Origin: Candidatus Kapaibacterium sp.
GTDB lineage: Bacteria > Bacteroidota > Ignavibacteria > Kapaibacteriales > UBA2268
DNA length: 64,000 bases
NCBI GenBank assembly: GCA_963664875.1
Contig: OY761611.1
Location: 2,080,001 to 2,144,000, forward strand
Reading direction: 5' to 3'
The number at the start of each line of letters is the position of its first letter. The first letter of the stretch is position 1. The notes beneath the pieces are model-generated. The model ran no database searches, was not told where the DNA came from, and saw only the letters and a list, made by a program, of their open reading frames with translations. Below, one piece after another: positions 5,235 to 53,690 of this stretch. The position numbers were made by a program, and so were the translations under genes.

Positions 5235-5320
5235 ATTGCCAAGGTGGTCAGTTAGCTCGTATTGTTTGTGACCGATTTGGCGAAAAACATCTCAAAACCT
5301 GCTCCATTCCCCTCTTGAGG

Positions 5321-6512
5321 CAGGGTTGATTCATTCTAACAAAGTCACCAATAGTTCTACATTGTCGGCAGTCTCATAGAAAAAGTTGGTACAATCAATA
5401 CGCTTCTTTGACCTAAAAATATTGATACAAATTGACTTTATTATACTCATGACTGAAGCTGCTTGTGTATTTCTCACTTTCCAAGCATCTTCTTTCATTA
5501 CCACATCCTTTACCCAATGTAGCTGGTTTTCAATGCCCCAATGTCCTCGTATGCTCTGCATATAATACTTTGCTGGTTTTTCTTGACTGCTCAAATAATA
5601 ATGTACATGAACTTCCTGCATTTGTTTTGTTTTTCTAATCCTTTGTACCTTTACTAATTGCTGTGATCCGGACCACTCGTTCTTAATTTTATCGTTTAAT
5701 GAATATACATATACTTTACGAGTTTCTCGTCTGTCTCTATTAGTTTCTTCGGTTTTATAATAATCGATCTTTGTTGACCAGCTCGAACTCAAACTCTCCA
5801 GTTCTTTGTACAAACGACCTTGATTCTTTTTTACGCAAATAATATAGTTGTTGTTAGTACTAACAATTGTTCTTAGAGTTTTTTTGACAGTGTAAAGCAT
5901 CCATTGTAAAGACTACGCCAGTCAGTTCTAAATCTCTAATCATTTCTTCAACTACGCTTATCTCGCTTGATTTTTTATTCTCATATTTGCTTATACTTAG
6001 TGACATTTTACTTGATTGAGAATGTGCAGAAACAATGCTTATAAAGTTCTGGTATTTCGAATTGTATTCTACTAATGTGCCTTTCAAAGCTTTGCCATCT
6101 ATACTGATTATTTCACCGCTTTGAGGCTTTGCATAAACTTTTGACCACTCTTTAAAAATCTGTGCAAATTCATCAAAATCTATATTATTTACCACTCTAA
6201 AAATTGTTGCGTAAGTTGGTAATCTATCTTTATGAGGCTTTAAATATTTCAGTATGTCTTCGGCATTCTTCTTTATAAATCTTTCTATGCCACGATAGCC
6301 ATATTGTCCGCTCATAGTCGCCATCAAAACCAGCAATAATACAAATGATTGATTATGGCGTGTGCCTTCCCTGCGACGCTTATCTGTCAACTTATCAAGA
6401 TAATTTACTAACGTTTGCTTTTCCATAAATCCCCCCAGATTAGAAAAGTTTGTGTTTGGCTTTCTATAATTTACTATATTATATGATATTTACAAAGAAC
6501 AAATCATCCCTG
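5321..6512 (-). mobile_element. ISAs1-family insertion sequence with 10-bp target-site duplication
   Basis: Terminal IRs cagggttgatt / aatcatccctg; TSD cctcttgagg at 5311-5320 and 6513-6522; empty site visible at 9150-9159. Confidence 0.93.
5331..6426 (-). CDS. ISAs1 transposase split over two frames (5860-6426 and 5331-5900)
   Basis: IDGKALKG, MDALHCQK, VKKNQ and RGHWGIENQLHWVKDV motifs; the frames join by a -1 shift at an A7 run (5879-5885). Confidence 0.88.
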
Positions 6513-6742
6513 CCTCTTGAGGGGTGCGTGAGCGAAGCGAGGGCGGGGTGGATAAAACCTAATATAAATCACTTCCCCCGAAAAAAATATCGCTAAATTT
6601 ATCTATATAAATTACATTTTCCTATATTGAAACAGTTGTGCTTCGAGAGATTCCACCCCGGCACTGCGTGCCACCCCTCAACGAGGGGAATTTTTCTTTT
6701 GCTGCCATCCTGATAATAGTTTTCCGGCACTAACATCCCAAA

Positions 6743-20358: not shown

Positions 20359-21297
20359 ATGGAATATAATAAACAAGCCAAGACCATAGATGAGCAGATT
20401 GCTCTACTGACTTCAAGGGGTATGCTTTTTGAGGATAATGAATATGCGAAAAACATATTATCCAAAATATCATACTACAGGTTAAGAGCATATTGGCTCA
20501 CCTTCGAAAAGGAAAATGTAACCCCTGACTCCCACTTTTTTAAAGCTAATACTTACTTTGAGCAAGTCGTAAAAACTTATGAGTTTGATAGAAATTTGAG
20601 ACATTTAGTATTCAATTCTATCGAAAAAATAGAGATTGCCCTACGAACTCAAATGATATACTGTGTTACGAATAACACTCAAGATATTACATGGTACACA
20701 AAAACTCAATATTTCGAAAAAGTGTATCACTTTAACAATCTTATGGATTTATTTGACAAGGAATATCAAGACAGTAAGGAAGTGTTTATTGAACATTTTA
20801 AAAGCAAGTATAACGACTCACCTTACCCTCCTGCTTGGATGGGCTTAGAAATTCTTTCTTACGGACAACTTTCTAAGCTTTTTAGCAATCTAAAAAGAGA
20901 ATACGGTAAATATGACATCGCTAATTACTTTGGTGTTCCTTTAAGATTGTTGTTGTCCTGGTTTGAAGCATTGACTTACTATCGGAATGTATGTGCTCAT
21001 CACGGAAGATTATGGAACAGAAAGTCACCTAAAGCTCCGATGTATCCTAACAAACCTAAACCGAACAAGCCCCCAATCTTCAAATGGTTAGATTTTGAAC
21101 CTGCTGAAGATAAAAAAGACAGATTGTATGGTAGCTTAGCTATTATTTATCTGTTGCTCAAACCTCTAAACTACCACGAAGAGTATAAAAAAGAGCTGTT
21201 CGATTTAATAAATTTATATAACTTTTTGCCTTTGCATTATATTGGCTTCCCTGAAAAATGGGAAGAGGATTCTTTTTGGAGCAGCGATAATGTATAA
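20359..21297 (+). CDS. AbiD/AbiF-family (Abi_2) HEPN RNase
   Basis: EQIALL.SRG, ISYYRL, YEFDRNLR, IEKIEIALRT, PPAW..EILSYGQL and RNVCAHHGRLWNR (HEPN Rx4H). Confidence 0.92.
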   Translation: MEYNKQAKTIDEQIALLTSRGMLFEDNEYAKNILSKISYYRLRAYWLTFEKENVTPDSHFFKANTYFEQVVKTYEFDRNLRHLVFNSIEKIEIALRTQMIYCVTNNTQDITWYTKTQYFEKVYHFNNLMDLFDKEYQDSKEVFIEHFKSKYNDSPYPPAWMGLEILSYGQLSKLFSNLKREYGKYDIANYFGVPLRLLLSWFEALTYYRNVCAHHGRLWNRKSPKAPMYPNKPKPNKPPIFKWLDFEPAEDKKDRLYGSLAIIYLLLKPLNYHEEYKKELFDLINLYNFLPLHYIGFPEKWEEDSFWSSDNV

Positions 21298-30376: not shown

Positions 30377-30402
30377 TATAACAAATCCAAATTTCTTACG
30401 TA
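30377..30402 (+). promoter_or_regulatory. ECF-sigma-like promoter
   Basis: TATAAC-N16-CGTA; TGTAAC-N16-CGTA also at 51765-51790 (-) and 53704-53729 (-). Confidence 0.5.
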
Positions 30403-30424
30403 AATCAATTATAAACGATTTTTT

Positions 30425-30535
30425 GTATCAAGAACACATAAGTGTACCAACCGAGCAAAAATGCCACGGTGGTAAAGTGATACGGCTTTTATAAGCAAAA
30501 ACCACTTCTTGGTACTCCATTTTAACATAGGAGTA
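30425..30535 (+). ncRNA. SAM-I/IV-like riboswitch, copy 1
   Basis: P1 GTATC/GATAC, J1/2 AAGA, P2 ACAC/GTGT, P3 ACC-AA-CCG..CGG-T-GGT, P5 GCTT/AAGC, then a TACTCC/GGAGTA anti-SD hairpin. Confidence 0.7.
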
Positions 30536-30541
30536 TTTTCC

Positions 30542-31144
30542 ATGCCATTAGCAAAACCAATACCCGGATTCTCAATTCCAACTCGGACAGAGAAAAAGTA
30601 TTACAGATATTACAACACGCGTTGCCTAATTCAATCTCGCTCAGCAGAATTCAAAGATTTCTACAAAAATCCGCAAGGCTCGAGATACCTTGCCGAAAAA
30701 ATGGGTTGGACAAAACTAAATAAGTTTATTGGAAGAAGAGAGGGATGGGACAATTTATTGATTCCAATTCCAAAGACTTATCTTGAACTTCTTGGACTAA
30801 GTAAGGAAGATATTGAATATACAATTTCCTTAGATCAAGAGTATTATGATGAAATCCTAAAGACTGAAACTACTTATAAAGAAAGTTATTTAGTCTTCCG
30901 ATGGGCGATAAGAACAATAAGATTTCCTCATCCTTTGACTGAAGAAGAAGCTATTGATTTCAGCAGACAGCAATTGCTGAAGGAAAAGGTTTATAAACAA
31001 GTGCTGATAAATAGGATGCCTTTATATCAGCTTTATGTTACAAGAGAAAAGACGTTTTATGATTACAACAGACCTGCTTTTGCTTATGATGGAAAGTGGT
31101 ATAAGTTTATTAGCACACAATTACCGGGATTGTCTTTGAAATAA
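30542..31144 (+). CDS. Hypothetical protein with a possible HTH (LAEKMGWTKLNK)
   Basis: ATG at 30542 after AGGAG; first gene behind riboswitch copy 1. Confidence 0.7.
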   Translation: MPLAKPIPGFSIPTRTEKKYYRYYNTRCLIQSRSAEFKDFYKNPQGSRYLAEKMGWTKLNKFIGRREGWDNLLIPIPKTYLELLGLSKEDIEYTISLDQEYYDEILKTETTYKESYLVFRWAIRTIRFPHPLTEEEAIDFSRQQLLKEKVYKQVLINRMPLYQLYVTREKTFYDYNRPAFAYDGKWYKFISTQLPGLSLK

Positions 31145-31611
31145 TGGAGAGAGATATGGCAAACGCATATTGGATTCTACCTAAGAATATAACTGAAGAG
31201 TCTGCTGTTATTGAAGTGAGAGCAAAACACATAGATACTGTAATTGATAATCCCAATCTTTTTGGTTTGACCTTGATGAACATCCGAAAGACTTATAAGA
31301 AGTATGACGAAAAAATTCGATTTGAAGGATTTGCAAGAGAAGAAATTGTAAAATCACTGATAATGAAAGGCTACATTCATATTCGCAAAAATTTAAAGAC
31401 TGATTGTTGGAGAATAACATCTACAGATTTCTTCAGCGGTCTAAATGAAGCGGAGCAAACTACACTCAGCAGATTAGCAGATTGGTACCTTGTTGTTTCA
31501 CAAGAGAGGGAGCATCGCCATTCTGATTTCGAAATAATAATAATTGAGGGTAATGGTAGAAGATATGGAAATCAAGAGTTTAGAAATTTGGTTTTAGGGA
31601 AAGTAAATTAA
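31144..31611 (+). CDS. Hypothetical protein (phage/mobile-element type)
   Basis: Coupled to the previous gene; YWI.P..HID.VI.NP..FGL..EG.AREEI...GYI.IR pattern; followed by hairpin 31668-31703. Confidence 0.7.
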   Translation: MERDMANAYWILPKNITEESAVIEVRAKHIDTVIDNPNLFGLTLMNIRKTYKKYDEKIRFEGFAREEIVKSLIMKGYIHIRKNLKTDCWRITSTDFFSGLNEAEQTTLSRLADWYLVVSQEREHRHSDFEIIIIEGNGRRYGNQEFRNLVLGKVN

Positions 31612-38797: not shown

Positions 38798-39871
38798 ATG
38801 TTTATGTTAAAATCTAAGCATGGTTCAAAGAAAATTGAAAAGCTCATAGATTGGGCTTATGAAAAATCTTTTGAAGGACTGCCTGGCACATATTCTGCAA
38901 TAGAGCTTGCTGATTCGGTTTATAATCCAAATGATAGTTTACTTTCTATGGCAAACAAAATCATCAGGAAAGAAACCTCAAAAGCTTCTATTTCAGGATT
39001 TATAACAGGCTTAGGCGGTCTTTTAACTATGTCTTTTATGATTCCTGCATCTTTAGTTGGCGTTACATTCCTACAGATGCGAATGGTAGCTGCAATTGCA
39101 CATTTAGCAGGGTTTGATTTGAAAGATAAAAAAGTAAAGACATTTGTTCTTTTAAGTTGGACAGTTGGTAAAACGGCAGATTTACTTAAAAATGTAGGTG
39201 CCAAATTTGCATCCCACACAGCAGGCGAATTGTTAGTGAAAGGTTTAAGTGAGGAAGCAATCAAGATAATCAATGAAACTGCTCTGAAGTCAATAGTACA
39301 GCGTTTATCAGTCAAAGGAGCAGAAGAAGTTACTTATAGTATTCCTCTCTTAGCAAGCATTGTAGGAGCATCCTTTGACGGAATCTCAACACTGATGATT
39401 GGGAACCGTGCTAAACAAATCTTTATAGTAAGAACCTCAAAAGAAGAAGACAATAATCGACTTGAAGAACATCTTAAGTTAGAGTACAACAAAATTGCTT
39501 TGTATATCAACTTGATAAAAATTGATGGAAAACTTCAAAGGCAAGAAATTAAAGTAATAGAAAAACTAATTGTTGAATCTGACTTGCCTAAAGTAGATAA
39601 ACGTACATTTGGTGAATCTCTGTGGGATTGTAAGCTAATACAAGTCGATTTTGCTTTGTTGAATAACCATCCTTTTGAAAAGCACAACATTCTATACACT
39701 TTGTTGGATTTAGCGAAAGTTGATGGAGAAATTGCTGAGCGTGAATTGAATTATGTCAGATTGATAGCCAAAAAACTGAATGTAAGCGAAAGAGCATTTG
39801 GGAATATTTTTAATACTGAATTTAGAAGCATTGTTACCGACAACGCCTCGAAATTTGATGTGTTGAAGTAA
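38798..39871 (+). CDS. EcsC-family protein fused to a TerB-like domain
   Basis: GFITGLGG..PA..Q.RM.AAIAH..G.D (EcsC); IDG..E and LAKVDGEIAERE..IAKKL (TerB). Confidence 0.8.
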   Translation: MFMLKSKHGSKKIEKLIDWAYEKSFEGLPGTYSAIELADSVYNPNDSLLSMANKIIRKETSKASISGFITGLGGLLTMSFMIPASLVGVTFLQMRMVAAIAHLAGFDLKDKKVKTFVLLSWTVGKTADLLKNVGAKFASHTAGELLVKGLSEEAIKIINETALKSIVQRLSVKGAEEVTYSIPLLASIVGASFDGISTLMIGNRAKQIFIVRTSKEEDNNRLEEHLKLEYNKIALYINLIKIDGKLQRQEIKVIEKLIVESDLPKVDKRTFGESLWDCKLIQVDFALLNNHPFEKHNILYTLLDLAKVDGEIAERELNYVRLIAKKLNVSERAFGNIFNTEFRSIVTDNASKFDVLK

Positions 39872-46822: not shown

Positions 46823-46986
46823 AGCTAAATCAGGTCATTCTTTATATTGTAAAGGATTTTGATTTTTCTCAGTTATATGCTGTAAATAATACCAATCTCT
46901 TATTTATTTTCATATGATTGATTTGCTTCTATTTTTTACACCTGAAAAAAACTTGCTTAGACCTGTCTTTTTGGGCTTCTTTTTAA

Positions 46987-48461
46987 CCCAAAAATGTCAT
47001 TAGCGATAATCTCTAATGACTGTCATTAGAAAAAAGAAGATATAACATGTTGATAAATAGTGCTTTAGCAGATATTAAAAAAAGTCTATATTAGGAAAAC
47101 AGATGTAAGAAAATCTTACGAAAAATATGGATGTAAAAATTGCTTTTACCGACAAAGAAATTACACCTTGGGCAGGTATTTCTTTGATGCAAAATATGCT
47201 AAAAAAAATGTCTTTTGATCAAATATTAAAAGATTTGGCGTTACCATCACAGGGTTCGAATAGAGGTTACAAACCAGAACAACTAATACAACACTTTTTA
47301 CTGGGTATTTGGTGCGGTGCAAGTTGCTTCGAACATTTAGAAGTAACAAGACATGACAAAGTCATCCAAAATTTGTTTGGATGGTCAAAAATGGCTGGAA
47401 GCAAAGCATTTCACAGATATTTTAATAAGTTTTCTCAGGCAACAAATCAACAGGTTTTTGATGAGCTTTACACTTGGTTCTTCAATAATTTTCAGTTTGA
47501 CAACTACACAATTGACTTTGATTCTACGGTGATAACTCGCTATGGAAATCAGCAGGGTGCTGCAAAAGGTTATAACCCTCGTAAACCGGGAAGGAATTCA
47601 CATCACCCTTTGCTTGCATTTGTCTCAGATTGCCGAATGATAGCCAATTGCTGGCTTCGGCCCGGCAATACCGGTGCATCAAGCAATTTTCTGAGTTTTT
47701 TGGAAGATACACTTTATAAGCTTGGTAATAAAAAAGCAGGTTTAATCCGTGCCGACAGCGGATTTTACTCAGACGAAATAATGAAATATCTCGAAAGTAC
47801 CAAACATAATTATATAATAGCAGCAAAGTTTTACAGACCTTTGAAAGTAAAAATTGCCAAACATACAAAATGGTGGCCTATAAGTAAAGGTTTAGAAATA
47901 GGCGAAACAAGCTACCAATCAGACAACTGGGATGAACCCCGCCGAGTTATAATGATAAGACAGTATGTTCCACAACGTCCTAAAGCAGTCGGAAAACAAT
48001 TGAGCTTTTTCGAAGGAGACATGCAATTCAAAGATTATCGCTACTCTTGTTTTGTAACAAATTTGGATTTGCCTGCACAAATAATATATGATATGTATCG
48101 TGGGAGAGCCGATTGCGAAAATAGAATCAAGGAGATAAAGTATGATTTTGGAGCAGAAAATTTCAATATGCGCAATTTTTGGGGTACAGAAGCAGCACTA
48201 AATTTTGTTATGATTGCCTATAATCTGATGAGTCTGTTTAGGCAAGCAGTTTTAAAAACTAAAAAGCAAAATTTTCTAAGCACACTCAGATATAAGACTT
48301 TTGCAATAGGCGGATATTTAATTAAAGATGGAAATTCTAAAATTTTGAAGTTATCTTTAGCAATGCAAAGGAGGCAATGGTTTAAGGGACTTTGGAGTTC
48401 GTCAACCTATATAAAATTGCCTCATGTGCTTTAATATGATATTTCTAATGACAAATTTGGG
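46987..48461 (+). mobile_element. IS1380-family insertion sequence
   Basis: IRs cccaaaaatgtcattag / ctaatgacaaatttggg; 5-bp TSD tttaa (46982-46986 and 48462-48466). Confidence 0.92.
47127..48434 (+). CDS. IS1380 transposase
   Basis: DFDST, GYNP..HHPL, LRPGN, RADSGF and YRGRADCENRIKE motifs. Confidence 0.95.
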   Translation: MDVKIAFTDKEITPWAGISLMQNMLKKMSFDQILKDLALPSQGSNRGYKPEQLIQHFLLGIWCGASCFEHLEVTRHDKVIQNLFGWSKMAGSKAFHRYFNKFSQATNQQVFDELYTWFFNNFQFDNYTIDFDSTVITRYGNQQGAAKGYNPRKPGRNSHHPLLAFVSDCRMIANCWLRPGNTGASSNFLSFLEDTLYKLGNKKAGLIRADSGFYSDEIMKYLESTKHNYIIAAKFYRPLKVKIAKHTKWWPISKGLEIGETSYQSDNWDEPRRVIMIRQYVPQRPKAVGKQLSFFEGDMQFKDYRYSCFVTNLDLPAQIIYDMYRGRADCENRIKEIKYDFGAENFNMRNFWGTEAALNFVMIAYNLMSLFRQAVLKTKKQNFLSTLRYKTFAIGGYLIKDGNSKILKLSLAMQRRQWFKGLWSSSTYIKLPHVL

Positions 48462-48466
48462 TTTAA

Positions 48467-48732
48467 AGTCTTCAAACTGTGACTCAAGATATTAAAATTG
48501 CTCATTTCAAGTTTCTCTGTTCTAAGATTATTGCTGACAGCTCTTCATCAGAAAGGTGTTGAATATCAGGGTAAGTAATTGTTGCTGATTGAGCCAAGGA
48601 AATATATTTTGACACGGTTTTGCGTGCAACTCCAAGAGAGTTTTCTATTTTACGCATGGAATGATGCTCGTGGTGCATTCTTAGAATTTGTCTGATATCT
48701 ATCAATGAAATACTTTTGTTAGTCATACACAA
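48467..48732 (-). pseudogene. IS21 IstA N-terminal remnant, interrupted by IS1380
   Basis: IRQILRM..SMRKIE..LGVARKTVSKY..LSDEEL; ESQFEDFKK|KPKKTGLSK continues across the IS1380 site. Confidence 0.7.
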
Positions 48733-48902
48733 TGCCCTCTACCTGTGACCATAATTATCAATTTAGAGGGACTCATTTTTTATGCCATGTTTGGTTTGGT
48801 GAAAAGTGGAGTTCTTTCACCGAAATATCAATAATATTCTAATTGGTCACCATGGGGCAGCAATCTTACACCAATCGAACCAAATATTAGAAGTTTAAAA
48901 CC

Positions 48903-49526
48903 TCACGACTTCCTTTTAAATCCTTCACCAACATAAGTTCGGATTGGATTACCACGCTCCAAATCCCAATGATTTAGCCAACGATCCCTTTCGGCATCAG
49001 AATGATTTTTGTCGTCAATATGTTTAATAATACCATATAGTCGTGATACAGCAAGACTTTTATTCCTTAGTTGGGAGCGTTCTTCACTTGCTAAAACGGA
49101 TATATTCGAAGGGATATGAGTTGCTCTGACTGCTGTTTCCACCTTGTTAACATTTTGTCCACCCGGACCTGAAGAACGTGTAGTTTCAAATTTTATATCA
49201 TTCTCTGAAAATTCAGTTGGCTTTGGCATTGAAAGAACATTTACTCCTACATACCAATTCTTTCTTTTATGGTTTTTACGGTAAGGGCTTTGTCCTATCC
49301 AAAGAATAGTACCAGTCCATGATTCCAAGAATGATTTTAAATTATCACCTTCTATACTTAGGAGTGCTGATTTCAAAGTGCCTCGTTTCTGTCCACTGAC
49401 TTTTTCAAGTATATCTAACTTAAGTTTAAACCCCTCTGCTTCTTTAGTAATTTCATTAAGAACCTTATTTACCACCCAAGCACATTCTTCGGGACATCTA
49501 CCTGCAGTAAGTTGTAACCAATGCAA
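48903..49526 (-). CDS. prfH: Peptide chain release factor H
   Basis: LQLTAGRCPEEC, GTILWIGQSPYRKNHKRKNWYVG and SSGPGGQNVNK. Confidence 0.93.
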   Translation of the reverse strand: MHWLQLTAGRCPEECAWVVNKVLNEITKEAEGFKLKLDILEKVSGQKRGTLKSALLSIEGDNLKSFLESWTGTILWIGQSPYRKNHKRKNWYVGVNVLSMPKPTEFSENDIKFETTRSSGPGGQNVNKVETAVRATHIPSNISVLASEERSQLRNKSLAVSRLYGIIKHIDDKNHSDAERDRWLNHWDLERGNPIRTYVGEGFKRKS

Positions 49527-49540
49527 ATTCTTATTTCCGT

Positions 49541-50191
49541 TTATTTATAATATTGATAAATAGTTTTGAAGTCAACCCATATAATCTTTATGCGTGAGAT
49601 TTCTTCAAATGACAGATGCTGATGATCATATAGTTCATGCAGCATAAATGTATGTATAAAGCTGTTTAAATCAGATTTGTCATCTGACAAATTTTTAAAT
49701 TCATTGTGATCGTAATTATTTGAATAATAGAATTTTTCAATATAATCTTCCAATTTATTAGAAGAATCATAGCTCAAACTGTCGGAGAAACGAGCTATAT
49801 AATTATCATCATCTTCTTTATAGGCAGGATCACCCTCACCTATAGAAAATTCAATTTCCCATTCAATTTCAAAATCTCGAACCCAATCATAATAATCATC
49901 AACTCTTGCCTTAGCGACTTTATACTGCCTATTTACTTCATCTTTGATAAGGACATTAATTTCGCGGAATCTTTCATTCAATTTCTTAACTGATTGCACA
50001 ATATCCTGCCATTTTTCATCGCTTTGTGTTTTTGTTATTCTATGAGCAAAGCTTATATCTTGATCGAGCTTTTTTATAATGCTACTAAATTGCTTGTATT
50101 TACTTTCTACAACTTTATTTACTGCATCAAATCCTCTTATTCTACGAAGAGTTGAGGGCATACTCAATACATTAAATTTCTCACTGAGCAC
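49541..50191 (-). CDS. Hypothetical acidic protein between rtcB2 and prfH
   Basis: Co-oriented with 2-bp and 14-bp gaps; GTG start; family not recognised. Confidence 0.7.
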   Translation of the reverse strand: MLSEKFNVLSMPSTLRRIRGFDAVNKVVESKYKQFSSIIKKLDQDISFAHRITKTQSDEKWQDIVQSVKKLNERFREINVLIKDEVNRQYKVAKARVDDYYDWVRDFEIEWEIEFSIGEGDPAYKEDDDNYIARFSDSLSYDSSNKLEDYIEKFYYSNNYDHNEFKNLSDDKSDLNSFIHTFMLHELYDHQHLSFEEISRIKIIWVDFKTIYQYYK

Positions 50192-50193
50192 AA

Positions 50194-51306
50194 CTATTTC
50201 CTTGTTTTATAAGTAATAATTGGTTTGAGCTGAGCCAGTACTTTTATTATTCCTGCATCAGCCAATGCTGCAATTATATGCTCAATATTCTTGTATGCCT
50301 GTGGTGCTTCTTCGTATAAGAGATTTTTATCTTCACAAATTACGGCACTTCCAATTTCGGTGAGTTGCATTTTATCAATTGTATATTTATCACCAAGGAT
50401 AGATTTAGCGTTTTTACGTTTCCACTTTCTACCCGAACCATGAGCAAGTGAAAAAAGATTTTGTTCCTGACCACCAATAGGTAGCACAAGGTAGCTATAT
50501 GTACCACGAGACCCTGCAATTACAACAGCACCAAGGTCTGAACGAGCCGCACCCTTTCTATGTAAGTAGTATTCTTGATGACCAACAGTTGTTTTAGCAA
50601 TACAGTTGTGTTCTACATCTAAAACCGTCTTTGAAAAACTACCTAACTGTTCTAAAAACCTTTCAGCAATCAGCTTTCTACTTAGTTTTGCCCAATGAAC
50701 CGCATTATCATGTTGCTGAAGATACTTAGTTGCCTCTTCAGATTCTATTTTGAGCCCAGTAGAAGTGTTTGTTTCTGCAAATTCTTGAAAAATTGCAGAT
50801 CCAAGGCTTCTTGAACCACTATGTACTAATAATACAAGATTCTTTGAATCAACTCCTAAATCTAAAAGAGCGTTTTCATCAAAAACCTTTTCAATAGATT
50901 GAAGCTCTGCAAAATGGTTTCCACCACCAATTGTACCAATAGAAGAATCATATGAGGTAGATTCAACACCTGCTTCTTCCATAATAGCATTTATATTCCC
51001 ATCATAAGAATCCTCTAAGCCTGATAGCTTTCTGACCCACTTATCTCTTTTGATTTTAGATTTCTTTAGGTCTGTTTGGAATAATGCCATTCCACATCCC
51101 ACATCATTGCCAATTAAATGCGGATAAATAATCTTTTGTGTTGCTATGGTAACTCCTACTGGTCCTGAATGGATGTCGGGAAGCCCAATAGCTTGTTGAA
51201 CACCTTCAAGTTCAGAAACAAGCTTAAGTTGTTCGATTGCTTCGCTTTCTACCCAATTTTTGTCATTAGTTATTAGCTTGATTTTGTTGTTTATTTCTTT
51301 GAACAT
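50194..51306 (-). CDS. rtcB2: RtcB-family RNA ligase (PrfH-coupled RtcB2)
   Basis: PDIH, GNDVGCG, GTIGGGNHF, HSGSR, HRKGA, AHGSGR and EEAPQAYK; ~370 aa; linked to prfH. Confidence 0.92.
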   Translation of the reverse strand: MFKEINNKIKLITNDKNWVESEAIEQLKLVSELEGVQQAIGLPDIHSGPVGVTIATQKIIYPHLIGNDVGCGMALFQTDLKKSKIKRDKWVRKLSGLEDSYDGNINAIMEEAGVESTSYDSSIGTIGGGNHFAELQSIEKVFDENALLDLGVDSKNLVLLVHSGSRSLGSAIFQEFAETNTSTGLKIESEEATKYLQQHDNAVHWAKLSRKLIAERFLEQLGSFSKTVLDVEHNCIAKTTVGHQEYYLHRKGAARSDLGAVVIAGSRGTYSYLVLPIGGQEQNLFSLAHGSGRKWKRKNAKSILGDKYTIDKMQLTEIGSAVICEDKNLLYEEAPQAYKNIEHIIAALADAGIIKVLAQLKPIITYKTRK

Positions 51307-51387
51307 AGATTTTCTTTTAAATTATAATTGCTGAAATATACTTCAATGAGTGTCAAATCTTGTCGTTGATGTATAGATTTGAGTTTG

Positions 51388-51624
51388 CTATTGTTTTTTT
51401 GCATATCCCCATGCTTCCCAAACTTTTTCCCTACCATAAGATTCAAAGCTATTAACAAGCTGCAACTCCTGAAGCACTTGTAAATCTCGTTCAACGCTTC
51501 TCTGAGCTACATCATCACCTGAAGAATCTAATTGTAGCAAGATTTCTCTTTTTGTCAGTTTTAGACCTTTTAGAAACATTTTAAGAATTGTCAAGGTTCG
51601 AAAGGTTTTGTTTGTCGATGCCAT
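51388..51624 (-). CDS. Small winged-HTH protein (like the N-terminus of WYL regulators)
   Basis: R.L.IL..L..LT..E...VAQRSVERDLQVL; paralog at 53448-53690. Confidence 0.75.
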   Translation of the reverse strand: MASTNKTFRTLTILKMFLKGLKLTKREILLQLDSSGDDVAQRSVERDLQVLQELQLVNSFESYGREKVWEAWGYAKKQ

Positions 51625-51632
51625 GATTTCTC

Positions 51633-51751
51633 TCTCCAAAATTTTACAAATGGAGTATCAAGTAGCGGACTTTTTTTGCTTAAAAGCCGTATCCTTTTGC
51701 CACCGTGGCTACCTTGCTCGGTTGGCACACTACTTAAAGTGTTCTTGATAC
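51633..51751 (-). ncRNA. SAM-I/IV-like riboswitch, copy 2
   Basis: Minus strand GTATC AAGA ACAC..GTGT GCC-AA-CCG..CGG-T-GGC AAAAG GATAC G GCT..AGC, tail TACTT complementary to the L3 loop, CTCCA/TGGAG anti-SD hairpin. Confidence 0.72.
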
Positions 51752-51874
51752 TATTTCTAAATAATACGTCAAAAATTGTAATTCGTTACAATTTAATCTA
51801 CCGAAATAAGCACAACATCTCATCACTTTGTTAAAAGTGTTCACAAAGAAAAAATAAAATTTATCAAAATCGTT

Positions 51875-53107
51875 TTATCTATCCTCCAAATATTTTTTAT
51901 GAGCAGCTACAACGTCTTCTGTTGTACTTCTTATGTATTTTTGTAATGACTTAATTGATTTATGACCAGACAGTCTGCAAACAGTAGATAGTGGAACGTT
52001 TTCATGTATCAACCAAGTAATAAATGTCCTTCTTGCAGTATGACTTGAAGCAGCTTCATATTTCGGTATCCTTTTTTCAACACGTTCCTTGCCTCTGAAA
52101 GAAGTGAGTATTATATCTTGATTTATCTCTGCCATTTTGCAAATTTCTTTAATCTTCCTATTGTAAACTTGACTACATTCTTTTGGTAATTGATAATTAT
52201 ATTTTTCAAGCATTTCTTTTGATATTTCATTATATGCGACAGTGACAGTTGTTGTTGTCTTTAGCATCTTAAAAGTAAGAGTTTGTTGACTCTTGTCAAA
52301 ATTTTCTGGTTTAAGATTAAACAAATCACTTACTCTTACTCCAGTATCAATTTGAAAGAGAAATAAATCTCTGTATTTTAAAATACCATCATCTAAATTA
52401 ATGAGATTTCTTATCCGATTTACTTCTACTATAGTTAGATAGATTGAATCTACTTCCTTCTGTATAACTTTCAATCCTTTTTTGTAAGCTACGGATGTAT
52501 GCCATTGTTGCTCATACGCATATCCCATAAATGTCTTTACTATTTTAACAACCTTACCAATAGAATTATCAGATAGATTATTTTGAATTAAAAATGTCGA
52601 AAATTTGCCTGCGAACACATCACCAACAGTAAAAAATTCTAATTGGTAATTTTCTTTTTTTACAAAGTTTTTTAAATGATTATAAGTAGATAAATAGCTG
52701 TCGATAGTTGATTTTTTTATCTGATTGCCATTACTCAATCTTATACCTGTTTTGGATCTCTCTATAAATTCTCTGAAATAGTCAAAAAATGTTTCTAAAG
52801 ATTTTGATGGATTGATTGTTCTTTCCAACTCATTTTTAAAATCTTCTTTTAGAAGAGGCAACATATGGCTAATTTTATTATTGTAAAATGTTACCATATG
52901 TGATTCGATTGTATGGAGAAAAGAATTTAGGTTTGTTGTATTTGTTGCACTACTTTTGAATCTCTTTTTCTTCTTATCCCAAAGTCTTTCGGAAAACTGT
53001 ATTCCTGTGTTTTTTTTGATTCTTGTTTTATTGAAATAGAGTTCGCAATACAGATAAACTTTATCTTTGCTTCGATGAGGATAAAATTTTACACTGATTC
53101 CTGCCAT
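51875..53107 (-). CDS. Tyrosine integrase (arm-binding + SAM-like + catalytic domains)
   Basis: TGVRVSD, SHTARRTF and SGH..KYI; lies next to the att repeat. Confidence 0.93.
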   Translation of the reverse strand: MAGISVKFYPHRSKDKVYLYCELYFNKTRIKKNTGIQFSERLWDKKKKRFKSSATNTTNLNSFLHTIESHMVTFYNNKISHMLPLLKEDFKNELERTINPSKSLETFFDYFREFIERSKTGIRLSNGNQIKKSTIDSYLSTYNHLKNFVKKENYQLEFFTVGDVFAGKFSTFLIQNNLSDNSIGKVVKIVKTFMGYAYEQQWHTSVAYKKGLKVIQKEVDSIYLTIVEVNRIRNLINLDDGILKYRDLFLFQIDTGVRVSDLFNLKPENFDKSQQTLTFKMLKTTTTVTVAYNEISKEMLEKYNYQLPKECSQVYNRKIKEICKMAEINQDIILTSFRGKERVEKRIPKYEAASSHTARRTFITWLIHENVPLSTVCRLSGHKSIKSLQKYIRSTTEDVVAAHKKYLEDR

Positions 53108-53447: not shown

Positions 53448-53690
53448 TCAATTGCGTTTGCAATATCCCCACGCCTGATAAACGTTTTCTCTTCCAGATC
53501 TCTCAAAACTGATAATAAGCTGCTGCTCTGATAGTAATTCAATATCTCTCTGCAAACTTCTCTTCGACACATCATCACCTTCGCAACTTAATTCGAACAG
53601 TAAATCTGAAATTGTTAACTGCCTACCTTTCATAAATTGCTTTAATATGTACACAGTTCTTTCTGCACGTCTCATAACAGCCATAAACAC
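53448..53690 (-). CDS. Small winged-HTH protein, paralog of 51388-51624
   Basis: Shared ILK.F.KG..LT..GDDV..RS..RD...L.E.QL..SFE..GRE.V..AWGY.K. Confidence 0.78.
   Translation of the reverse strand: MFMAVMRRAERTVYILKQFMKGRQLTISDLLFELSCEGDDVSKRSLQRDIELLSEQQLIISFERSGRENVYQAWGYCKRN

Follow-up and report, generated by a model that had tools for sequence, protein, structure and literature searches.

Textbooks present riboswitches that sense S-adenosylmethionine (SAM) as feedback regulators of methionine and SAM metabolism. The SAM-I/IV class among them features a pseudoknot, PK2, between the loop of helix P3 and the 3′ tail. The rtcB2-prfH module acts on ribosomes cut in the 16S decoding center, through peptide release and religation, and to our knowledge no other system repairs ribosomes cut by ribotoxins. 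In excerpts of two papers, rtcB2-prfH is described as a two-gene operon with stop and start close together, and these excerpts name no regulator of it (Baranov et al. 2006, PMC1586002; Tian et al. 2022, PMC9304027). Here, we analyze a window of 64,000 nucleotides from Candidatus Kapaibacterium sp. (assembly GCA_963664875.1, contig OY761611.1, positions 2,080,001 to 2,144,000; coordinates below count from the first nucleotide of this window), in which a SAM-I/IV aptamer precedes a row of four minus-strand open reading frames (ORFs): a putative winged-helix gene (wHTH), rtcB2, an orphan ORF (X), and prfH. Comparisons of leaders and models of their folds lead us to favor, as moderately probable, a reading in which the leader is a functional SAM-OFF translational switch on wHTH, the first ORF of a lineage-specific wHTH-rtcB2-X-prfH row.

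A scan with Rfam covariance models finds three RNAs in the window, one tRNA and two SAM-I/IV aptamers. The aptamer ahead of the repair genes (51662–51756, minus strand) scores 69.3 bits against RF01725 (E = 1.9e-9; gathering cut-off of 41.1 bits), spans the full model (positions 1–99), and ends 38 nt ahead of the ATG of the 78-aa wHTH gene. Its helices, all on the minus strand, are P1 (51751–51747 with 51693–51689), P2, P3, and a hairpin at 51688–51678. An earlier reading made from the letters alone (hereafter, the sequence-only reading) had bounded the aptamer at 51751–51689, which are the positions where the 5′ strand of P1 begins and its 3′ strand stops, and the hairpin it placed after P1 is present as GGCUUUUAAGC. 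As in the SAM-I/IV class (excerpts of Weinberg et al. 2010, PMC2864571), the RNA has a P1–P3 core, a P2 that is a simple hairpin lacking the internal loop seen in SAM-I, and a second hairpin 3′ of P1; unlike that class, none of the 18 leaders of its subtype precedes a recognizable SAM or methionine gene, and PK2 is unsupported. In an alignment of 14 related leaders from the genome of the window and its relatives, P1–P3 are paired in 95.8% of cells (23–49% in slid controls) and 8 of 19 pairs have changed on both sides, values that none of 500 shuffles reached. The element is a canonical member of the SAM-I/IV class, and its expression platform is conserved as well; SAM is the presumed ligand.

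The platform itself is compact. Directly 3′ of the aptamer is an anti-P1 segment, CUUGAUAC (51662–51655, minus strand), the exact reverse complement of GUAUCAAG (51751–51744), which comprises the 5′ strand of P1 and the joining segment J1/2. It overlaps by one base an anti-Shine-Dalgarno (anti-SD) stretch, CUCCA (51655–51651), that pairs with the Shine-Dalgarno (SD) sequence UGGAG (51638–51634) ahead of the start codon (ATG, 51624–51622; all minus strand). This hairpin had been recognized in the sequence-only reading, and so had its conservation at the second aptamer of the window, where TACTCC and GGAGTA are the corresponding arms. The anti-P1 segment is invariant in all 14 aligned leaders save one wobble position, and the helix it forms is paired in 98.2% of 112 cells, with slid controls at 37–53%. 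More widely, a platform of the form CUUG[A/G/U]UACUC is kept in 18 of 18 leaders of the subtype from five genera, and linker and loop sequences vary.

Models of folding predict the direction of the switch. Minimum-free-energy folds (RNAfold) include the anti-P1 helix in 12 of 14 leaders (exactly in 10 and with one mismatch in two); the exceptions are L051, which has a partial helix only, and L041, which favors P1. When P1 is forced, the SD hairpin lengthens, reaching 5 bp in the copies ahead of wHTH and ∼7–13 bp elsewhere. In partition-function calculations, GGAG is less likely to be unpaired once P1 is locked, in all 14 leaders and clearly so in 13. The organism uses SD sequences, as its 16S tail carries CACCUCCU and GGAG at −18 to −5 is 13-fold enriched at crude starts (242 of 1,562, relative to 19 of 1,562 in a control interval), and SD occlusion is therefore a plausible point of control. 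Because the anti-P1 segment is retained and locking P1 reduces access to the SD, the leader is predicted to be a SAM-OFF translational switch. The sequence-only reading had held that ON or OFF could not be read from sequence; the conserved anti-P1 segment argues otherwise. The same OFF logic, in which the bound fold frees an anti-SD to occlude the ribosome-binding site, is found in SAM-III (SMK box) and in translational SAM-I and SAM-II leaders. The leader analyzed here differs from these in that its aptamer class is not SMK, its 8-nt anti-P1 segment covers J1/2, and its targets are not metK or met genes.

We propose the following mechanism. Transcription would probably start at an extracytoplasmic function (ECF) sigma-type promoter, ∼5–7 nt before P1. 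Without SAM, GUAUCAAG would pair with the downstream CUUGAUAC, breaking the aptamer and keeping the anti-SD off the SD, such that wHTH is translated. When SAM is bound, P1 would be locked and CUUGAUAC-UCCA freed, allowing CUCCA to close on UGGAG and block initiation. Repression of wHTH could then lower rtcB2-X-prfH through polarity, mRNA decay, or a role of wHTH as a regulator. Judged from leader sequences and models, control of wHTH translation by SAM is likely. Control of the repair genes by SAM is plausible, with the case for it and the case against it about even. The sequence-only reading had coupled SAM status to RNA repair; the part of this that stands is that the platform acts on the SD of wHTH, and an effect on rtcB2-X-prfH would have to follow from it.

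The promoter-like motif is shared across the subtype. TGTAAC-N16-CGTA, which the sequence-only reading had placed at 51790–51765, is present there (51765–51790, minus strand), and 13 of the 18 leaders that bear the platform have AAC-N16-CGT[AT] in the 50 nt ahead of them, with intervening spacers that are otherwise unrelated. The five leaders without it are L005, L052, and three that precede genes of the family we call Q (G190, G193, and G196). Background occurrence is low (485 sites in 3.83 Mb, both strands counted, or ∼0.0018 per 50-nt interval), and the motif is absent at five of five sub-threshold SAM-I-like matches, which precede metabolic or receptor genes in the same bacterial family, and at six of six RF01725 matches from other families of the phylum. 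It is a real, recurrent signal, and its use as a promoter is inferred from sequence. The genome encodes 16 proteins with a Sigma70_r2 domain, none of them inside the window. In two relatives of the same genus, similar motifs lie directly ahead of rtcB2. A plain rtcB2-prfH locus without a riboswitch (L006) has TCAAC-N16-CGTATAC at 1403–1425, 45 nt before rtcB2, and a locus with a lone rtcB2 (L007) has AAC-N16-CGTATAC with one mismatch at about 1410–1435, just upstream of the gene. These motifs suggest that rtcB2 is part of an ECF-type regulon in the genus. Since the motif found directly before rtcB2 in L006 is here upstream of the riboswitch, the simplest history would be insertion of the leader and wHTH between an ECF-type promoter and rtcB2.

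The subtype was delimited by a search pattern that joins the aptamer core to the anti-P1 segment. Among 254 genomes of the order, the pattern occurs at 18 places in 12 genomes, and a reversed-pattern control returns none. All 12 genomes are in the family of the window (11 of 129 plus the genome of the window itself), with none among 124 genomes in ten other families. The first gene behind the leader belongs in ten cases to a family of ∼200-aa proteins (P), in four to Q (150–280 aa, some with C-terminal Cys pairs), in three, all in one genus, to wHTH, and in one to a 244-aa uncharacterized protein followed by an AAA_15 ATPase. No first gene of the 18 leaders has an above-cut-off Pfam family. 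The complete genome of the window has five SAM-I/IV copies, all of the platform subtype; it has no match to SAM-I and no Rfam RNA within 1.5 kb of metK at E ≤ 1, and a search for SAM-Chlorobi, which found no match, is uninformative because its control was equally blank. Elsewhere in the phylum, RF01725 matches in other families (L055 and L057) precede, among others, a 440-aa membrane protein, which we take to resemble an NhaC-type transporter, and these matches lack both the CUUGAUACUC platform and an ECF-like motif. The exact leader pattern is found in no viral contig and in one metagenome contig, where it is of the leader type of L044. Judged by gene context, the genes that the entire subtype serves in this bacterial family have no visible link to SAM, and most of the leaders follow an ECF-type motif.

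Gene P is the most frequent target. The family has 211 cluster representatives (E ≤ 0.001) among 1.84 billion proteins, and no viral contigs carrying it were found. An AlphaFold2 model of P has a mean predicted local distance difference test score (pLDDT) of 84.6, and at E ≤ 0.001 it has no Foldseek match in PDB or BFVD. Twelve members have no Pfam match at E ≤ 0.001 (the best, GSKIP_dom, reaches 0.0036 in two members), ten longer relatives have none better than E = 0.005, and the best match to PDB sequences has E = 0.89; nothing in the ESM Atlas scores above 0.78. A helix-turn-helix (HTH) at the N-terminus of P was considered and dropped as unsupported. At the one leader with a different kind of target (genome G099; locus L042, 1–528, minus strand), the gene for the 244-aa protein is followed by one for an AAA_15/AAA_21-type ATPase; ATPases of this type are common in abortive-infection and defense systems. 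A further aptamer of the wHTH type, in genome G175 (L037, 1501–1595, minus strand; 64.5 bits), has the promoter variant TGTAGC and lacks the CUUGAUACUC platform. A class-V aminotransferase gene, cysteine-desulfurase-like, is 317 nt downstream of it, and this may be a rearranged leader or one with another target.

The genes of the row follow the ATG at 51624 in the order and common direction given by the sequence-only reading, and the four ORFs are closely spaced, with gaps of 81, 2, and 14 nt. The gene rtcB2 (50194–51306, minus strand) is an open frame of 370 aa assigned to the PrfH-associated RNA ligase subfamily (TIGR03073, 437.4 bits, cut-off 271.8; NF007153, 485.3 bits, cut-off 407). The gene prfH (48903–49526, minus strand) encodes release-factor homolog H (TIGR03072, 246.9 bits, cut-off 166.65), with its GGQ intact within SSGPGGQ. 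These two share with the E. coli system an RtcB2-subfamily ligase and a GGQ-bearing PrfH in the same order and orientation, and differ from it in that the 651-nt ORF X splits the genes and a riboswitch-led 78-aa ORF precedes them (excerpts of Tian et al. 2022, PMC9304027, and Baranov et al. 2006, PMC1586002). Relative to the published two-gene operon, then, an X between the genes and a wHTH ahead of them are atypical. By analogy with E. coli, the row is predicted to function in ribosome repair.

The two additional genes are nearly confined to this arrangement. The ORF for wHTH (51388–51624, minus strand) is present as the sequence-only reading had it, and its winged-helix label is weakly backed, with a match to FUR of 18.4 bits that falls below the cut-off of 23.1 and one to the N-terminal domain of ArgR at E = 0.047. 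In a collection of 5.8 billion proteins, wHTH has one homolog and X (216 aa; 49541–50191, minus strand) has two, all within the same gene block. None of Pfam, NCBIfam, PHROGs, and PADLOC assigns X to a family, and its AlphaFold2 model (pLDDT of 40) is unusable. Ratios of nonsynonymous to synonymous substitution rates between copies are 0.11–0.12 for wHTH, consistent with purifying selection, 0.21 for rtcB2, 0.28–0.37 for prfH, and 0.39 for X. A 76-aa ORF (48502–48732, minus strand) with weak matches to HTH_11 and HTH_38, unrelated in sequence to wHTH, is located 170 nt downstream of prfH.

True rtcB2, defined as scoring above the TIGR03073 cut-off, is found in 3 of the 254 genomes, all in the genus of the window, and there are three instances of the riboswitch-wHTH-rtcB2-X-prfH arrangement, two of them in the genome of the window (G000) and one in a relative (G174; its leader is recorded as L036 and L038, which have an identical score of 63.5 bits and are counted once). 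In the same genus, neither L006, with a 4-nt gap between rtcB2 and prfH, nor L007 has wHTH or X. The closest public match is in a metagenome-assembled genome of Candidatus Kapaibacterium, whose RtcB2 is 91% identical; the contig scan with RtcB2 returned this one close relative only, and it does not speak to distant rtcB2 loci. The arrangement is therefore a mosaic confined to one genus, and rtcB2-prfH does not carry it as a rule. As a unit, it would have arisen by joining a promoter-plus-riboswitch module that normally serves P and Q in this bacterial family to a horizontally acquired rtcB2-prfH.

Several observations weigh against the favored reading. There are only three instances in one genus. 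The sequence-only reading had proposed to seek the motif upstream of other rtcB2-prfH loci; at E ≤ 0.1, Rfam matches nothing at the rtcB2 loci L006 and L007, and the pairing is not general. The second copy of the row in G000 has a stop codon in rtcB2 and a frameshift near the 3′ end of wHTH, and X has two in-frame stops in L036, leaving the copy in the window as the only one intact throughout. Narrow distribution and decay in two of three copies thus limit the case. None of the eight pairs of the anti-P1 helix shows a double compensatory change, so its support comes from conservation, not covariation. The SD hairpin of the wHTH copies is just 5 bp with a 12-nt loop, and the modeled shift in accessibility is modest, with the unpaired probability of the SD falling in the copy of the window from 0.27 to 0.09 when P1 is locked. 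The assignment of the promoter-like motif to an ECF sigma factor is putative and draws on its resemblance to the sigma-W and sigma-X consensus of Bacillus (AAC at −35 and CGT at −10, 16 nt apart). Lastly, rtcB2 starts 81 nt past wHTH without an obvious SD, which makes translational coupling between the two genes unlikely.

That gap is also central to the strongest alternative, which we regard as rather unlikely: the riboswitch would govern wHTH only, and rtcB2-X-prfH would be independent of SAM, by a start within the spacer or by read-through transcription that translation of wHTH does not affect, leaving a link to repair that is indirect through wHTH or absent. The platform acts on the SD of wHTH alone, and 81 nt excludes tight coupling. 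The spacer between wHTH and rtcB2 (51307–51387, minus strand) holds the hexamers TTGACA and TATAAT 24 nt apart and one loose ECF-like match, AAC-N17-CGAC. Against an internal start, no sigma-70-like site with a spacing of 16–18 nt is called in the spacer, nor is any terminator; across 48400–52000, the counts of sigma-70-like sites (13, relative to 14.3 expected from shuffles) and terminator-like sites (one, relative to 1.4) are at chance level. An internal ECF-like promoter was judged unlikely, as L036 has lost the AAC-N17-CGAC match yet retains an intact rtcB2. Gene neighborhoods can be read both ways. A paralog of wHTH, wHTH2 (49% identical; 53448–53684, minus strand), is beside an integrase gene and not repair genes, and the plain rtcB2-prfH locus has its own ECF-like motif directly upstream; yet the counterpart of that motif is here ahead of the riboswitch, as insertion of the leader and wHTH would predict. 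In wHTH2, TGTAAC-N16-CGTA (53728–53704) is followed directly by an SD and ATG without a riboswitch, and the gene is upstream of a tyrosine integrase gene (51875–53107, minus strand). Of four strict matches to the motif in the window, three are those of the two riboswitches and wHTH2. Both wHTH and wHTH2 are small proteins that may regulate mobile DNA or serve as its directionality factors.

A second alternative, that the leader came along with the promoter module as an evolutionary passenger and no longer regulates, or that it binds a ligand other than SAM, is in our view quite improbable. The decay of two of the three rows would fit it, as would the SD hairpin being weakest in the wHTH copies and the lack of recognizable SAM or methionine genes behind the 18 leaders. 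However, the three wHTH-type leaders retain all helices even though the P3 loop is rebuilt in L038, they score 63.5–69.3 bits, far over the cut-off, with conserved core positions that agree with the consensus, and the platform is invariant over five genera. Least probable of all is an ON switch, in which SAM binding would keep the anti-SD off the SD through a contact of the PK2 tail with the P3 loop, as the pairing of loop AGGUA with tail UACUU that the sequence-only reading took for PK2, although it can form 5 bp here and overlaps the CUU of the platform, is equaled by 82 of 1,000 tail shuffles and so is at chance level, is absent in the wHTH-type leader of G174 and in most P-type and Q-type leaders (among the other 12, with the second G000 copy left out, comparable pairing occurs only in L051, at 28 of 1,000 shuffles), and locking P1 lowers SD accessibility in every leader modeled.

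The two aptamers of the window delimit a larger structure. The other aptamer (30420–30511, plus strand; RF01725, 61.7 bits) has the same platform, is preceded by the ECF-like motif ATAAC-N16-CGTA (30378–30402, plus strand), and leads into a gene of family P (30542–31144, plus strand) and one of family Q (31144–31611, plus strand). Together, the two leaders enclose a ∼21-kb block (30373–51791) with an inward-facing promoter-plus-riboswitch unit at each end, and this block is present twice in the genome. The second copy is at 1377184–1357509 of G000, with segments that are 99.1%, 97.6%, and 95.6% identical (blastn against the own genome). Homology starts at the two promoter motifs in both copies, which indicates that the block is bracketed by promoter-plus-riboswitch units. 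An IS1380 element with its transposase (46982–48465) is inserted only in the copy of the window. The rest of the block encodes uncharacterized proteins, proteins with Fib_succ_major, GYF/zinc-ribbon, and EcsC/TerB domains, and two with sorting tails of the type IX secretion system. An interpretation of the block as a phage or defense island was not adopted, as no signature of either kind is strong enough to name it: PADLOC calls a single gene in it (PDC-S29, 38798–39871), PHROGs yields nothing useful, and no viral contigs with the leader or P were found.

A few other features of this genome were recorded. Outside the window, a 21-aa remnant (G000:C1:38928-38990) is 86% identical to the C-terminus of PrfH and is ∼18 kb from the fifth riboswitch copy (20883–20975); it may be what is left of a third copy of the block that has decayed. 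IS1380 has several near-identical copies in the genome, and a second insertion sequence of 1.2 kb (5306–6526) has six copies that are 99.5–100% identical. Between about 1445 and 13060, a dense family of segments of 160–420 bp recurs many times at 80–97% identity within 2,056–2,093 kb of the genome and is probably a repeated domain or an intergenic repeat of a tandem gene family.

No paper in the literature searched, gene-context supplements lying outside it, combines prfH, rtcB, and a riboswitch, which agrees with the statement in the sequence-only reading that no report of SAM control over this operon was known. Another RNA-repair ligase operon with dedicated stress-type control is rtcBA of E. 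coli, which is under RtcR and sigma-54; a protein activator is used there, and an ECF-like motif with a metabolite-sensing RNA is found here. A broader idea, which we hold to be doubtful, is that these leaders are two-input gates that open upon envelope or other stress, by way of an ECF sigma factor, and low SAM, such that the subtype would be a sensor of danger or starvation instead of a feedback device for SAM synthesis. A collapse of SAM, brought about by starvation for methionine or sulfur or by SAM-degrading enzymes of phages, would then turn on accessory modules, being P and Q in five genera and a ribosome rescue-and-repair operon in the genus of the window. To the cell, SAM depletion would signal an attack on the translation apparatus or its under-modification.

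Returning to the SAM-OFF switch on wHTH, the finding, if true, would mean that a natural regulatory input for rtcB2-prfH is known for the first time. It would also give access to the two uncharacterized families P and Q, and a compact promoter-plus-riboswitch module suited to direct reporter assays. Beyond the link to repair, what is more general, and also more surprising, is that a subtype of SAM riboswitch serves genes that are not those of SAM metabolism. If its leaders respond to SAM, the level of SAM would be a general physiological signal in these bacteria for accessory functions, including the repair of ribosomes.

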